A stretch of DNA of 64,000 nt, taken from NCBI RefSeq assembly GCF_003018235.1, contig NZ_CP027437.1. One strand, 5' to 3'. The notes beneath the pieces were generated by a model. That model was not told the DNA's origin and searched no databases. It worked only from the letters and a program-made list of their open reading frames with translations. This document shows positions 5,777 through 35,616 of the stretch, one piece after another; the first letter of the stretch is position 1; each line of letters starts with the position of its first letter. Source of the DNA: Escherichia coli. Lineage in GTDB: Bacteria; Pseudomonadota; Gammaproteobacteria; Enterobacterales; Enterobacteriaceae. The position numbers and the translations under genes were made by a program.

Positions 5777-6529
5777 ATGGCTGTAACTAAGCTGGTTCTG
5801 GTTCGTCATGGCGAAAGTCAGTGGAACAAAGAAAACCGTTTCACCGGTTGGTACGACGTGGATCTGTCTGAGAAAGGCGTAAGCGAAGCAAAAGCAGCAG
5901 GTAAGCTGCTGAAAGAGGAAGGTTACAGCTTTGACTTTGCTTACACCTCTGTGCTGAAACGCGCTATCCATACCCTGTGGAATGTGCTGGACGAACTGGA
6001 TCAGGCATGGCTGCCCGTTGAGAAATCCTGGAAACTGAACGAACGTCACTACGGTGCGTTGCAGGGTCTGAACAAAGCGGAAACTGCTGAAAAGTATGGC
6101 GACGAGCAGGTGAAACAGTGGCGTCGTGGTTTTGCAGTGACTCCGCCGGAACTGACTAAAGATGATGAGCGTTATCCGGGTCACGATCCGCGTTACGCGA
6201 AACTGAGCGAGAAAGAACTGCCGCTGACGGAAAGCCTGGCGCTGACCATTGACCGCGTGATCCCTTACTGGAATGAAACTATTCTACCGCGTATGAAGAG
6301 CGGTGAGCGCGTAATCATCGCTGCACACGGTAACTCGTTACGTGCGCTGGTGAAATATCTTGATAACATGAGCGAAGAAGAGATTCTTGAGCTGAATATC
6401 CCGACCGGCGTGCCGCTGGTTTATGAGTTTGACGAGAACTTCAAACCGCTGAAACGCTATTATCTGGGTAATGCTGACGAGATCGCGGCGAAAGCAGCAG
6501 CCGTTGCGAACCAGGGTAAAGCGAAGTAA
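5777..6529 (+). CDS. gpmA: 2,3-bisphosphoglycerate-dependent phosphoglycerate mutase
   Basis: 250 aa; RHGESQWN catalytic His motif; RBS GAGGAG upstream of ATG at 5777. Confidence 0.95.
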
Positions 6530-29180: not shown

Positions 29181-30551
29181 ATGGCTCGTTCTTTTAAAGT
29201 CTTATCGCCAACGGCAATCCTCGGGTATGGATTCCCGGAGGAGAGCTTCCGCAAAGCGATGGCAGAATCGCCCGATCTGATCGCCGTTGATGCTGGCTCT
29301 TCCGATCCTGGCCCCCACTACCTCGGGGCGGGCAAACCGTTTACCGCTCGCGCAGGGGTCAAGCGCGATCTGCGCTATATGATCACCGCAGGCGTGCAAA
29401 ATAATATACCGGTGGTGATCGGAACGGCCGGCGGTTCTGGTGCCGCTCCACATCTGGAGTGGTGCCGAGAAATAATTCATGAGATTGCCCGGGAAGAGCA
29501 CCTCTCGTTCTCGATGGCGCTGATCCCGGCAGACGTTGACAAAGCTATCGTCCACCAGGCGCTGGATAACGGCAAAATCACGGCGCTGGATTTTGTCCCG
29601 CCGTTAACCCACGACGCGATTGACGAAAGTACGTATATCGTCGCGCAAATGGGCATCGAACCCTTCCAGCGGGCGCTGAAAGAAGGCGCGCAAGTGGTGC
29701 TGGGCGGGCGCGCTTACGACCCGGCCTGCTTTGCTGCGCTTCCGATCATGCAAGGCTTTGATGAAGGTCTGGCGCTGCATTGTGGGAAAATCCTTGAATG
29801 CGCGGCAATCGCCGCAACGCCCGGCTCAGGCTCTGACTGTGCGATGGGCATCATTGATGACAACGGCTTTACGCTGAAGACATTTAATCCGAAGCGTAAA
29901 TTTACCGAAACGTCAGCGGCTGCACACACACTGTATGAGAAATCCGATCCCTACTTCCTGCCTGGACCTGGCGGCGTGTTGAACCTGAAAGGCTGCACAT
30001 TTAAAGCGGTCAATGACAGCGAAGTGTACGTCAGCGGTTCTAAGCATGAAGAAACGCCGTATTCCCTGAAACTGGAAGGTGCGCGACGGGTGGGCTTCCG
30101 CTGTCTGACCATCGCCGGAACGCGCGACCCGATCATGATCGCCGGGATCGATAAAATCATCGATGAAGTCAAAACCAGCGTTTCGCGTAACCTGTCGCTC
30201 GACGATGACAGCATTCACATCAATTTCCACCTGTACGGCAAAAACGGGGTGATGGGCGACCATGAACCGATGCAAACTGCCGGGCATGAGCTGGGGATTG
30301 TCCTAGATGTAGTTGCGCCGACCCAGGAGATTGCCAACAGCGTTTGCTCGCTGGTGCGCTCTACTATGCTGCACTACGGCTATGAAAACCGCATCGCTAC
30401 CGCAGGCAACCTGGCGTTCCCGTTCTCCCCTTCTGATATCCAGGGCGGGCCAGTATACGAATTTTCCATATATCACCTGATTGAAGCCAACGACGCTCTG
30501 CGTTTTGATTTCCATATTGAACAGGTGACGCCAGAAGGAGTTCAGGCATGA
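29181..30551 (+). CDS. conserved protein of unknown function, AtuA-like N-terminal part (DUF1446-type)
   Basis: 456 aa soluble protein; domain assignment from memory, not verified. Confidence 0.55.
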   Translation: MARSFKVLSPTAILGYGFPEESFRKAMAESPDLIAVDAGSSDPGPHYLGAGKPFTARAGVKRDLRYMITAGVQNNIPVVIGTAGGSGAAPHLEWCREIIHEIAREEHLSFSMALIPADVDKAIVHQALDNGKITALDFVPPLTHDAIDESTYIVAQMGIEPFQRALKEGAQVVLGGRAYDPACFAALPIMQGFDEGLALHCGKILECAAIAATPGSGSDCAMGIIDDNGFTLKTFNPKRKFTETSAAAHTLYEKSDPYFLPGPGGVLNLKGCTFKAVNDSEVYVSGSKHEETPYSLKLEGARRVGFRCLTIAGTRDPIMIAGIDKIIDEVKTSVSRNLSLDDDSIHINFHLYGKNGVMGDHEPMQTAGHELGIVLDVVAPTQEIANSVCSLVRSTMLHYGYENRIATAGNLAFPFSPSDIQGGPVYEFSIYHLIEANDALRFDFHIEQVTPEGVQA

Positions 30552-30865
30552 AACAGTCAATTGTCTCACTGGCGCAAGTCATTCGTTCGAAAAATGCCGG
30601 ACCTTACGAACTGGTTTTAGATATTTTATTTAAAACGAAAGAAAACTATGAGCGAGTTAAATCATCAGGGCAATTAACCCCAGAACTGATCGCGCGCTTA
30701 TATCATGTTGAACCTGACTTTATTCATCGTATTGTCTGGTTTGATCCTTCTAACGCAGTAAAAATCGTCATGCCACGAGATATTATCTCCGGGAATGTAG
30801 GTGACAATGATGTCTATGGCGCACAGCAACATGCACCTTTATTAAATATGAGTTTCGATTTGTAA
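30548..30865 (+). CDS. small conserved protein, AtuA-like C-terminal part (DUF4387-type)
   Basis: 105 aa; start overlaps upstream stop (ATGA), suggesting a two-subunit pair. Confidence 0.5.
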   Translation: MKQSIVSLAQVIRSKNAGPYELVLDILFKTKENYERVKSSGQLTPELIARLYHVEPDFIHRIVWFDPSNAVKIVMPRDIISGNVGDNDVYGAQQHAPLLNMSFDL

Positions 30866-30948
30866 AAATCCGAACACTTTTAGCCAACTGACATCCCGTC
30901 ACTTATTGCAGTTCAACACTTCAGCTATTTGTAAGGTTGTAATAGCAG

Positions 30949-30980
30949 GTAGATGCCTGAATCTCTATTCGGGCATCTAC
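30949..30980 (+). other. stable hairpin between AtuA-like pair and transporter gene
   Basis: Perfect 9-bp stem GTAGATGCC/GGCATCTAC followed by T-rich stretch. Confidence 0.45.
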
Positions 30981-31025
30981 TTCTCCTGATTCTGATTTAT
31001 CGCGGTGCACCTGATGGAGGAAAAA

Positions 31026-32306
31026 ATGAAGAAAATAAGTTTAACCACGATGATTCTTTTGGCGCTCGTACTTGGAATGATTATCGGCGTAGTGCTCAAT
31101 AACACTGCTTCACCGGAAACCGCAAAACTCTATGCGCAAGAAATATCGATATTCACGACGATTTTCTTACGACTGATAAAAATGATTATCGCTCCGTTAG
31201 TGGTCTCTACCCTGGTGGTAGGTATAGCTAAAATGGGAGATGCCAAAGCCCTTGGTCGTATTTTTTCTAAAACACTCTTTTTATTTATTTGCGCCTCATT
31301 GCTGTCAATTGCCTTAGGCTTGATAACAGTAAATTTCTTCATGCCAGGCACAGGAATTAATTTTGTTGCACACGGAGCCGAAACCACCGGAGTGGTCGCA
31401 TCAGAACCCTTTACGCTAAAAGTATTTATTTCGCATGCTTTCCCCACCAGCATTGTCGATGCCATGGCGCACAATGAAATTTTGCAAATCGTAGTGTTCT
31501 CAATTTTCCTCGGCTGTAGCCTGACGGCGATTGGCGAGAAAGGCAGCGCCATCGTTCACGCCTTAGATTCGCTGGCACATGCCATGTTAAAGCTCACTGG
31601 CTACGTCATGCTCTTCGCTCCCCTGACCGTATTCGCTGCTATTTCAGCATTGATTGCTGAACGAGGACTGGCAGTTATGGTGAGCGCCGGGATCTTTATG
31701 GGTGAATTTTATTTCACCATGTTATTACTTTGGGTGCTGCTTATCGGTCTGGCCATCGTTTATGTCGGCCCCTGCATCAGACGCCTGACCCGCGCCCTTT
31801 CGGAACCCGCTCTGCTGGCATTTACCACATCCAGTTCTGAAGCGGCTTTTCCGGGAACGCTTGAAAAACTGGAGCAATTTGGCGTTTCCCCCAAAATTGC
31901 CAGCTTTGTCTTACCCATTGGCTACTCATTTAATCTCGTTGGATCAATGGCCTACTGCTCCTTCGCCACAGTTTTCATCGCCCAGGCCTGCAATATCCAT
32001 TTATCCATCGGTGAGCAAATCACCATGCTGTTGATCCTGATGTTGACCTCGAAAGGAATGGCTGGCGTACCACGCGCCTCAATGGTGGTTATCGCCGCCA
32101 CGCTCAACCAGTTCAATATTCCGGAAGCGGGGCTGATCTTGCTGATGGGCGTTGATCCGTTCCTTGATATGGGGCGTTCCGCGACAAACGTCATGAGCAA
32201 CGCAATGGGCGCTGCGATGGTGAGTCGGTGGGAAGGCGAACATTTCGGCGAGGGTTGTCGGGGTAAAGCATTAAAACCCAATGAATCGAACGTTGCTCTG
32301 CCCTGA
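31026..32306 (+). CDS. dicarboxylate/amino acid:cation symporter (DAACS family, GltP/DctA-like)
   Basis: About 426 aa polytopic protein with GltP/DctA-type motifs; RBS GGAGG before ATG at 31026. Confidence 0.8.
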   Translation: MKKISLTTMILLALVLGMIIGVVLNNTASPETAKLYAQEISIFTTIFLRLIKMIIAPLVVSTLVVGIAKMGDAKALGRIFSKTLFLFICASLLSIALGLITVNFFMPGTGINFVAHGAETTGVVASEPFTLKVFISHAFPTSIVDAMAHNEILQIVVFSIFLGCSLTAIGEKGSAIVHALDSLAHAMLKLTGYVMLFAPLTVFAAISALIAERGLAVMVSAGIFMGEFYFTMLLLWVLLIGLAIVYVGPCIRRLTRALSEPALLAFTTSSSEAAFPGTLEKLEQFGVSPKIASFVLPIGYSFNLVGSMAYCSFATVFIAQACNIHLSIGEQITMLLILMLTSKGMAGVPRASMVVIAATLNQFNIPEAGLILLMGVDPFLDMGRSATNVMSNAMGAAMVSRWEGEHFGEGCRGKALKPNESNVALP

Positions 32307-32413: not shown

Positions 32414-34065
32414 ATGTCCAAACCATTTATCTGGCAAGAACCGTTTCTACAAAATAAAGACGGTACAGAATATACATTAATTAGCGATCAACATATTACA
32501 GTAACGGAATTAGACGGCGAAGAAGTGATAAAAATCGCTCCTGAAGCATTAACGCTGCTTGCCCGGCAGGCATTTTATGAAGCCTCTTTTTTCTTACGTT
32601 CCGCTCATTTGCAACAGGTCGCCAGCATTCTTAACGATCCGCAGGCCAGTAGTAATGATAAATACGTTGCGTTGCAGTTATTACGTAATGCTGAAGTCTC
32701 AGCAAAAGGGGTATTACCCAACTGTCAGGATACCGGCACCGCAACTATTGTTGCCAGTAAAGGGCAACAGATATGGACGGGAGGTAACGACGCTGAAGCC
32801 TTAAGCAAAGGCATTTACAGTACTTTCCAGGAAAATAATCTGCGCTTTTCACAAAATGCGCCGCTGGATATGTATACCGAAGTCAATACGCAAACCAATC
32901 TCCCGGCGCAGATTGATATCAGCGCTGTCGCTGGTAATGAGTACCATTTTCTCTGTGTTAATAAAGGGGGCGGCTCCGCCAATAAAGCCGCACTTTATCA
33001 GGAAACCAAATCCTTATTGCAACCAGAAAAACTGACCGCATTTTTAATCGAAAAAATGAAATCGCTGGGCACCGCTGCCTGCCCGCCTTACCACATCGCC
33101 TTTGTCGTCGGAGGGCTTTCAGCCGATCAAACCTTAAAAGTTGCCAAGCTGGCCTCTACGAAATATTACGACAATTTGCCCACCAGCGGAAACGAGCAGG
33201 GACAAGCATTCCGTGATATTGAGCTGGAAAAAGTGTTGCTCGAGGTCAGTCAGCAATTTGGTATTGGTGCGCAATTTGGGGGTAAATATTTCGCTCATGA
33301 TATTCGCGTCATTCGTCTGCCGCGTCACGGTGGCTCTTGCCCGATAGCTATGGCGCTCTCCTGTTCTGCCGATCGCAATATCAAAGCAAAAATTAACAAG
33401 CACGGTATCTGGCTGGAAAAACTCGAACACAATCCGGGGCAATATATTCCAGCCTCACTGCGGGAAGAAAATCACGCGCAACATGTACAACTGGATCTAA
33501 ACCGTCCGTTGCGTGACGTGATGCAGGATCTCGCCAGATTACCGGTAGGCACCCGCGTGTCGTTAAGTGGTCCCATCGTAGTGGCACGCGATATCGCCAC
33601 GCCAAAATAAAAGCGCGGCTGGATAACGCCGAACCGATGCCGGATTACCTGAAGCATCATATTGTCTATTACGCTGGCTCGGCGAAAACACCGGAGAACA
33701 TGGCCTGCGGTTCACTGGGTCCAACCACGGGCGGTCGAATGGACGGTTATGTCGATACCTTCCAGGCGGCTGGCGGCAGTCTGGTGATGTTATCGAAAGG
33801 TAACCGCAGCCAGCAGGTCACCGATGCCTGTCACAAACATGGTGGCTTCAATCTGGGTAGTATTGGCGGTGCAGCTGCGTTACTGGCGCAAGAATATGTC
33901 AAAAGTCTGCGTTGCCTGGAATACCCGGAGCTGGGTATGGAAGCGGTGTGGATGATGGAAGTGGAAAATCTGCCCGCATTCATCCTGGTAGATGATAAAG
34001 GCAATAATTTCTTTAGTCAGTTTGAGCAGCAACACCGCTGCGCCAGTTGCCCTGCGGGACATTAA
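32414..34065 (+). pseudogene. fumD: class I fumarate hydratase family (FumD-type mesaconase), interrupted by apparent 1-bp deletion near 33595
   Basis: ORFs 32414..33610 and 33637..34065 are N- and C-terminal parts of one FumA-like protein; C-part frame reads ...[20 protein letters not shown] continuously upstream, offset one base from ...[11 protein letters not shown]. Confidence 0.75.
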
Positions 34066-34680: not shown

Positions 34681-34712
34681 CTGCGCCTGGCATCCCGCCA
34701 GGCGCAGGTTTT
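34681..34712. terminator. bidirectional terminator between adenosyltransferase gene and LysR gene
   Basis: Hairpin CTGCGCCTGG(catcccg)CCAGGCGCAG followed by TTTT. Confidence 0.6.
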
Positions 34713-35616
34713 ACATCTCCTGCGGTACAACCGATTTCGCCAGCAACCATTCACGAAATTGCTGCAAGTGCGGTGAGTCAGACTTCTCTTCCTGCCACGT
34801 CATAATAAAACGATTACCGGTACGAATAGGCACATCACAGGGGATCACCATATCGCCACTATCCAAATCATGTTGAATAGCGAAACGTGGTAACAGCGCC
34901 ACGCCGAGATTAGAGCGCACGGCGGCAATCAGCATTGAAAGCAAATCGAAACGTGGTCCGTTGTTGACCAGCGGACTGCTAACGCCAGATAAGGCAAACC
35001 ACTCTTCCCAGCCAGTAATACGGGTACTTTGATGCAGAAGTGGTAACTCTGTAAGCAGTTCTGCCACTGACAGTTTTTGATCGGACATTGCAAGCAAACT
35101 GCCGCTGCATACCGGCAAAATCTCCTCATCAAAGAGATATTCTACTTCCGCCCAGGGCGCGCAAAAATTTTCGCGCATAATGACAGCATCGTACTCCCGA
35201 TTAAGAAAATCGCCGTTATTAGCTAAAGAGTGAATATTAACAATAATATCGGGATGTAACTTTGTGAATTCATGTAAATTTGGGATTAACCAGTGGGTAC
35301 TAAACGTAGGATTCACGGCAAGTTCAATAACCTGAACCGTAGGCTGCCAGGTCATAATGGTATTGGTATCGCGTTCCAGCTTATTTAATGTTTCTTTTAC
35401 TATCCCCAGGTAATACTTCCCTGCATCATTAAGAAAAATACGTTTTTTAGAGTGTGAAAATAACGGAGTATGTAAAAATTCCTCCAGCGCACTCACTTGT
35501 CTGAATACTGCACTTTGGGTCAACGCTAACTCCTCTGCCGCTTTGGTATAACTTTCATGACGTGCGACGACCTCAAAAGTCACCAGCAGCTCCGTTTTAG
35601 GTATTTTTCCTCGCAT
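34711..35616 (-). CDS. LysR-family transcriptional regulator
   Basis: 301 aa; N-terminal HTH (TKAAEELALTQSAVFRQVSALE) and LysR substrate-binding domain. Confidence 0.85.
   Translation of the reverse strand: MRGKIPKTELLVTFEVVARHESYTKAAEELALTQSAVFRQVSALEEFLHTPLFSHSKKRIFLNDAGKYYLGIVKETLNKLERDTNTIMTWQPTVQVIELAVNPTFSTHWLIPNLHEFTKLHPDIIVNIHSLANNGDFLNREYDAVIMRENFCAPWAEVEYLFDEEILPVCSGSLLAMSDQKLSVAELLTELPLLHQSTRITGWEEWFALSGVSSPLVNNGPRFDLLSMLIAAVRSNLGVALLPRFAIQHDLDSGDMVIPCDVPIRTGNRFIMTWQEEKSDSPHLQQFREWLLAKSVVPQEM

Follow-up and report, generated by a model that had tools for sequence, protein, structure and literature searches.

Stable RNA structures that follow a stabilised segment of an operon act as protective structures and are often conserved among E. 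coli, Salmonella and Enterobacter (PMC5927463). In malE-malF and related cases of differential operon decay, a stable stem-loop stands after the upstream segment, in or near the intercistronic gap, and a U-tract is not needed for its action; malE-malF uses multi-copy REP elements, and most of the structures described in that work lie inside the downstream coding region (PMC5927463). The same work gives a papBA-like model for operons whose downstream gene is stabilised, in which a hairpin lies in the intercistronic gap shortly 5' of the downstream ribosome-binding site, with an RNase E-like motif just upstream of it.

Here we analysed a previously unannotated hairpin in the gap between a DUF4387 gene and a symporter gene of a glutamate-breakdown cluster of E. 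coli. The hairpin would belong to this well-known kind of element. Like the protective intercistronic structures, it is a stable stem-loop in the gap on the 3' side of the upstream segment, and orthologous operons of E. coli and other enterobacteria have kept it. It differs from malE-malF in being single-copy and from most of the structures in PMC5927463 in lying wholly within the gap.

Genomic context

The window (the whole 64-kb stretch of DNA that was analysed) comes from E. coli, and its positions 30400-31500 were matched in 1,124 of 5,426 complete E. coli genomes (~21%) at 95-100% identity. The hairpin lies in a 12-kb island, a methylaspartate-pathway (glutamate-breakdown) cluster with its insertion site at sucD/cydA. 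The same cluster is known from O157:H7, where the mesaconase FumD (ECs0757) is its fumarase and the symporter goes by the name of GltP, a glutamate transporter (PMC4682846). The gene order in RefSeq is glmS, glmL, glmE (methylaspartate mutase), methylaspartate ammonia-lyase (mal), an AtuA-family gene, DUF4387, symporter, class I fumarate hydratase (fumD) and cobO. All nine structural genes are encoded on the + strand, and a convergent LysR-family regulator gene stands at the end of the cluster (Table 1). Intergenic gaps within the cluster are tiny except for those between DUF4387 and the symporter (160 nt, the largest untranslated gap) and between the symporter and fumD (107 nt). The transcript of the whole cluster likely ends at the stem-loop after cobO, which is the most stable 44-nt fold of the window and the only inverted repeat of a comparable stem-loop type in the island.

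Table 1. Coordinates of the hairpin, its parts and the surrounding features in the window
Feature	Position	Strand	Evidence or remarks
DUF4387 gene	30548..30865	+	ORF list and RefSeq annotation of identical loci; closes the upstream segment glmS-glmL-glmE-mal-atuA-DUF4387
Untranslated spacer, DUF4387 stop to hairpin	30866..30946	+	C-rich, G-poor; weaker predicted hairpin at ~30907-30947
Full stem-loop, 16 pairs (two G·U) and 4-nt loop	30947..30982	+	Sequence, RNA fold, inverted repeat, covariation
5' arm GTAGATGCCTGAAT	30949..30962	+	Sequence, inverted-repeat search
Loop CUCU	30963..30966	+	RNA fold
3' arm ATTCGGGCATCTAC	30967..30980	+	Sequence, inverted-repeat search
Tail CTCCTGATTCTGATTTATCG	30983..31002	+	45% T, without a U-run adjoining the stem
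GltP-like dicarboxylate/amino acid:cation symporter gene	31026..32306	+	ATG at 31026, Shine-Dalgarno GGAGG at 31016-31020; opens the downstream segment symporter-fumD-cobO
Strong stem-loop 3' of cobO, followed by GTTTT	34681..34707	+	Terminator scan, 11 pairs (9 G-C); inverted-repeat search
LysR-type regulator gene	34711-35616	-	ORF list, RefSeq annotation

Several features of the neighbouring genes were recorded in passing. The AtuA-family (DUF1446) and DUF4387 genes (29181-30865) overlap by 4 nt (30548-30551), and their adjacency is kept from Enterobacterales through Firmicutes-type MAGs. DUF1446 has been described as a protein of unknown function (PMC4682846); a literature search gave no paper discussing the AtuA/DUF4387 gene pair, and a search for the flanking locus tags gave no mention beyond the FumD paper. 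In fumD (32414-34065), a 1-nt deletion relative to strain THO-008 (CCC to CC at ~33597, affected window 33585-33610) splits the frame into ORFs 32414-33610 and 33637-34065; the split gene is either a pseudogene in the window strain or the product of a homopolymer sequencing error.

Structure of the hairpin

The first-pass annotation had described a perfect 9-bp stem between the DUF4387-like and symporter genes. Both the location and the stem were borne out, with the DUF4387 gene ending at 30865, the symporter ATG at 31026, and GTAGATGCC (30949-30957) exactly complementary to GGCATCTAC (30972-30980); the true stem is longer. An inverted-repeat search returned 14-nt arms (30949-30962 and 30967-30980) with 4 nt between them, and RNA folding gave 16 pairs (30947-30962 with 30967-30982). 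The predicted folding energy of the hairpin (56-nt stretch) was -23.6 kcal/mol; the 200 shuffles averaged -10.3 (z = -5.2), and none was as stable. The hairpin was retained in the centroid structure when the entire intergenic region was folded, and only seven 44-nt folds of the + strand of the window are more stable. It lies 82 nt 3' of the DUF4387 stop and 44 nt 5' of the symporter ATG.

An equally stable stem-loop (-23.7 kcal/mol; GGTGCCGCTCCACATCTGGAGTGGTGCC) was observed inside the AtuA-family coding region, at 29431-29474.

Copy number and variation within E. coli

A 61-nt query around the hairpin matched one place per genome in 1,123 E. coli genomes, with a maximum of 2 in any genome, and there was no annotation under the hairpin in the matched genomes. 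Allowing up to 3 mismatches, a search of the window gave no second copy, and single arms were matched no more often than by chance. Searches of the E. coli gap and one Citrobacter gap against Rfam in E-value mode gave chance-level matches only, none better than E = 5.

The GTAG and CTAC at the base of the stem, which we take to resemble REP, had prompted the idea of a repeat family. As with REP/BIME elements, the palindrome lies between genes of an enterobacterial operon, in a gap that is transcribed; unlike them, it has perfectly complementary arms, whereas the REP palindrome is imperfect, and its single copy per genome and per window excluded a repeat family.

Variation within the species was assessed by comparing six E. 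coli sequences, the window included. At position 30971 the window carries G, which forms a U·G pair, and all five of the other fetched sequences carry A, which forms U-A. Strain 7/2 carries A30953G, converting an A-U pair to G·U, and strain EC17CM2 carries A30975T, by which one pair is broken. In strain 100416 (L004, locus positions 1-240) an IS1 element sits on the 5' arm and replaces all upstream sequence, leaving the 3' arm and the symporter gene intact; this allele is a natural stem-disrupting mutant.

Conservation and covariation across Enterobacterales

A species scan with one genome per species yielded 61 loci encoding an AtuA-family protein. In nearly all Enterobacterales among these loci, the symporter gene follows DUF4387 after a gap of 120-360 nt. 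A G+C-rich hairpin of 13-17 pairs was present in the gaps of Citrobacter, Klebsiella, Enterobacter, Salmonella (subsp. arizonae and diarizonae), Lelliottia, Buttiauxella and Pluralibacter. Its position, ~83 nt past the stop and 41-47 nt ahead of the ATG, is shared by 30+ species including Escherichia, and its sequence differs among them. In the MAFFT alignment, a common GCCTGA...TCAGGC core holds the hairpins of E. coli and Citrobacter in register, and compensatory double changes between the two were read from the alignment at 7 of the 16 pairs.

Covariation was counted over the 16-pair structure in 36 distinct sequences, which are related, so that the changes are not independent events. Standard pairs occupied 93.3% of cells in these 36 sequences, compared with 21-46% when the 3' partners were slid by 1-3 columns. 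Changes on both sides were found at 12 of the 16 pairs across the 36 related sequences, and the observed covariation score was reached by 0 of 500 shuffles. Among the non-Watson-Crick cells, which were drawn from related sequences and so do not count as independent events, 74 were G·U and 13 A·C. An A·C cell corresponds to a G·U pair of the opposite strand, and the excess of G·U thus points to pairing selected in the sense RNA of the + strand. The alignments indicate that the hairpin is a selected sense-strand RNA structure and not a DNA palindrome or an antisense RNA.

These data bear on two readings in which the RNA structure plays no part. The first is a DNA palindrome that serves as an operator for the LysR-type regulator of the island or as another protein-binding site, as might be proposed for an intergenic inverted repeat in a cluster with its own LysR-family regulator gene. 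The complementarity is kept through the turnover of sequence, with arms that differ at the seven pairs noted above; the spacing of the arms varies (4-11 nt), and the conserved half-site and fixed spacing of an operator were not found; and the preference for G·U over A·C makes sense only for RNA of the + strand. The orthologous loops vary in sequence as well as in length, which is expected of an RNA hairpin and not of a protein-binding site. An operator was rejected on the grounds of sequence turnover, variable spacing and G·U bias, and we regard it as very improbable. The second reading is a chance or relic palindrome with no function. Strong local folds do occur inside coding regions of the window as well (for example 29431-29474), but the z-score of the hairpin and the conservation of its position and pairing, with compensatory changes, in at least 8 genera make this reading scarcely credible.

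A different arrangement was found in Yersinia, Hafnia, Morganella, Budvicia and a related isolate, where a hairpin and then a T-run lie 25-45 nt 3' of the DUF4387 stop; these Yersinia-type hairpins, which follow the same gene, are putative homologs of the E. coli hairpin. The Yersinia alsatica hairpin (10 pairs, then TTTTTT) was called a canonical terminator by the scan. Sequences of the Yersinia loci L047-L049 were read directly; the automatic pick had fused the terminator-like hairpin with flanking pairs. Escherichia whittamii (L037, 5686-5975) and Escherichia sp. E1V33 (L051, 5686-5954) are without the symporter gene, have fumD ~290 nt after DUF4387, and carry a hairpin followed by TTTATC soon after DUF4387. 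Because both the Yersinia-type and the symporter-less species have a hairpin after DUF4387, a 3'-end structure there is general and goes with the upstream segment.

Some loci depart from these patterns in other ways. In L037, fumD is separated by no cobO-sized ORF from a reverse-strand ORF of 301 aa whose size and place agree with those of the regulator. Klebsiella oxytoca (L057, 5686-5880) and one Citrobacter amalonaticus strain (L050, ~5800-5950) have a gap that is longer by ~115-195 nt, and the inserts carry sequence of the CCCAGGAGC...GGGGTGAGC type, which we take to resemble ERIC/IRU repeats. The main hairpin of L050 is remodelled to a different pairing; the insertion in K. oxytoca leaves the hairpin beside the downstream gene. 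A contig binned as Collinsella sp. (L008) encodes DUF4387 and symporter proteins 100% identical to those of the window and an AtuA protein 98% identical, with three base differences in the gap, and in one 'Citrobacter sp.' MAG (L007/L014) the locus occurs twice, once in E. coli-like and once in Citrobacter-like form. Both appear to reflect mis-binning or contamination.

Tail sequence and intrinsic termination

The T-rich stretch that had been reported after the stem holds as a matter of composition, with 9 T in 20 nt against 25% T window-wide, but it does not contain a U-tract. In E. coli, the longest run adjoining the stem is TT, followed by C/U-mixed sequence, and the first TTT comes 14 nt downstream. 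The tail reads CTCCTGAT or TTCTCCTG by choice of stem end, and its TransTerm-style score is -2.2 (stem end at 30982) or -3.5 (stem end at 30980), compared with -3.1 for the cobO terminator and -2.1 for the window mean. The terminator scan, in which a U-tract was defined as at least 5 T in 8 nt beginning 0-2 nt past the stem, did not call the hairpin, and its tail falls short of this definition; the sole listing here was a 5-pair mini-stem inside the 5' arm (30946-30959). The Citrobacter-type tail (Citrobacter, Klebsiella, Enterobacter and Salmonella) reads ACCCUACAC and scores ~-1.6, worse than the window background. This tail has no U-tract and the stem is conserved nonetheless; the function that this group has kept can therefore not be intrinsic termination. 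Judged by these sequences, the E. coli tail is borderline as a terminator, the Citrobacter-type tails are not terminator-like, and a canonical intrinsic terminator is not what has been conserved.

An efficient intrinsic terminator at this site would produce two independent units, symporter-fumD-cobO having a regulated promoter of its own. The stem would suit such a role, as it contains G+C, has 14-16 pairs and a 4-nt loop, and lies on the sense strand 3' of a stop codon; with the stem end at 30980 the tail becomes TTCTCCTGATT, which scores near the cobO terminator, and the Yersinia ortholog is canonical, the full hairpin-plus-T-run form being present in the Yersinia-type loci. Unlike an intrinsic terminator, the E. 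coli hairpin continues into UU and then mixed C/U and has no U run beside the stem, and ACCCUACAC is the tail in 30+ of the closest non-Escherichia orthologs, which keep the stem. No promoter-like site was seen in the 44 nt past the hairpin or elsewhere in the gap. In addition, fumD and cobO serve the same pathway as the upstream enzymes and would be needed together with them (PMC4682846), so that a hard stop at the hairpin would be counter-productive. We consider efficient termination unlikely.

The proposal that the hairpin divides the island into two or more transcription units gained no support from promoter prediction. In E. coli, Citrobacter and Yersinia alike, the + strand of the gap showed no sigma-70-like promoter that could start a second unit. 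Two promoter candidates, TGTAAT and TAATAG, were examined by eye and rejected, with key positions missing and a -35 partner absent.

Other features of the gap

The spacer between the DUF4387 stop and the hairpin has a C/G ratio of 2.2 (30853-30930), which falls in the ~95th-99th percentile of 78-nt windows of the cluster and among the top four that do not overlap; this C-rich, G-poor composition would be compatible with a Rho loading site. The sole invariant alignment block 5' of the hairpin is GTTG, 10-14 nt before the stem, in the context GGUUG in E. coli and the Citrobacter-type group and AGUUG in locus L009. The gap has a sole ATG (30952), which falls within the stem, lacks a good Shine-Dalgarno and, by eye, is missing from the orthologs.

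Citrobacter-type gaps (L010-L036) contain two further helices. A second hairpin pairs alignment columns 24-32 with 52-60, shows covariation (for example, U-A in 17 sequences versus C-G in 14) and has a conserved GCUGUAUCAC in its loop. An outer helix, GGUUGGU/ACCARCC, surrounds the main hairpin (columns 72-154) and ends ~10 nt before the Shine-Dalgarno; its changes are one-sided only. In the Citrobacter-type consensus fold the helices are nested and do not compete, and neither the second hairpin nor the outer helix was recognisable in E. coli by folding of the gap or by alignment.

Nothing pointed to attenuation, which had been suggested together with partial termination: by eye the gap showed no conserved leader ORF, the Citrobacter-type consensus fold gave no competing antiterminator structure, and Rfam returned no match. 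A leader-peptide attenuator in particular was rejected on inspection by eye, the only ATG in the gap being buried and not conserved. A broader possibility is that the whole DUF4387-symporter gap is not a passive boundary but a conserved, undescribed multi-helix cis-regulatory RNA, a larger structured leader that would act on symporter translation or stability through a ligand, a protein or a small RNA and so would set the expression of the transporter, mesaconase and B12-adenosyltransferase genes in response to a signal metabolite, protein or small RNA. The second covarying hairpin with its conserved loop and the outer helix close to the Shine-Dalgarno would fit a leader of this kind in the Citrobacter-type group. 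Against this, the gaps searched have no Rfam match, the main stem forms a simple, perfectly paired helix whose loop varies, E. coli shows no recognisable trace of the extra helices, and the outer helix has one-sided changes only. We regard such a leader as improbable.

The outer helix also bears on processing by RNase III, which would cleave a long duplex and separate the two halves of the transcript. The hairpin is an almost perfect intercistronic duplex of 16 pairs, and in the Citrobacter-type gaps the outer helix stacks on the main stem and extends the double-stranded region. E. coli RNase III substrates typically contain ~two helical turns (at least 20 bp) of near-perfect duplex. Sixteen pairs are fewer than this, and the outer helix is absent in Escherichia; an RNase III site is quite improbable.

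A papBA-like role would place the function of the hairpin at the 5' end of the downstream RNA. RNase E would cut in the single-stranded spacer, or an activator-dependent promoter would fire, just upstream of the hairpin, which would then shield the symporter-fumD-cobO RNA. The constant distance of 41-47 nt to the ATG fits this reading, as does the K. oxytoca hairpin, which stays with the downstream gene despite the insertion in the gap. The GTTG block before the stem agrees at 4 of 5 positions with RN|WUU, the RNase E motif given in PMC5927463, and the model has its precedent in the operons with a stabilised downstream gene described in that work. In the Citrobacter-type gaps, however, GGUUGGU is predicted to pair with ACCARCC and would be hidden from RNase E, and the cleavage site in E. 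coli is putative. No sigma-70-like promoter was found in the gap, and, unlike papBA, the Yersinia-type and symporter-less loci place the hairpin beside the upstream gene: the symporter-less species still carry it after DUF4387, and the Yersinia-type hairpin adjoins the upstream stop, 73-270 nt from the ATG. We consider a papBA-like role doubtful, though it is the mirror image and the main rival of the reading favoured below.

Expression data

In the Cappable-seq tables for EDL933, no canonical start site was listed for any cluster gene from cobO to glmS, and sites for the LysR regulator and cydA were present. In RNA-seq of EDL933 across 11 conditions, the island was near-silent (RPKM ~0-3) with the exception of Z0890, which by Z numbering is the DUF4387 gene (equivalent to 30548-30865) and which reached RPKM 18 and 12 in two conditions, with neighbours at 0-3. 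The Z0890 signal may be noise from very low read counts, or it could be a stable fragment that ends at the hairpin.

Discussion

We favour, with a probability of roughly 0.45, the reading that the hairpin is an intercistronic stem-loop that marks an internal boundary of a polycistronic mRNA, where it would act as an exonuclease barrier and at most as a leaky terminator. Sense-strand covariation, the position in the largest gap of a same-strand nine-gene cluster and the T-run hairpins of the Yersinia type together make a transcript-boundary role reasonable. The first-pass annotation had proposed a partial terminator or attenuator dividing the island; of this, the boundary role remains plausible in view of the covariation, the G·U bias, the position in the gap and the Yersinia terminator, and neither the canonical terminator, for want of a U-tract, nor the attenuator does. 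The hairpin is nearer to the downstream ATG than to the upstream stop (44 against 82 nt), which speaks against the favoured reading, and a role at the 5' end fits this position equally well.

As an internal boundary, the hairpin would block 3'-to-5' exonucleases, whose entry point would be an RNase E cut further downstream or a Rho-dependent stop enabled by the C-rich untranslated spacer. At the weakly U-rich tail of E. coli, a minority of polymerases may also terminate at the hairpin. We infer that, through this exonuclease block and leaky termination, the two segments would differ in abundance, with the upstream segment (glmS, glmL, glmE, mal, atuA and DUF4387) outlasting or outnumbering the symporter, fumD and cobO segment, and that read-through would keep supplying the downstream genes.

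Such elements are common in enterobacterial operons, and the present one opens no new question. If the favoured reading is correct, it would be a further operon-internal RNA structure supported by covariation, one whose shape has been kept while the U-tract was lost in one lineage. The hairpin would then set the ratio of the catabolic enzymes to the transporter, mesaconase and adenosyltransferase genes within an accessory glutamate-utilisation island that is present in O157:H7 and in about a fifth of complete E. coli genomes, and it would thereby bear on the timing and strength of this pathway in the gut.
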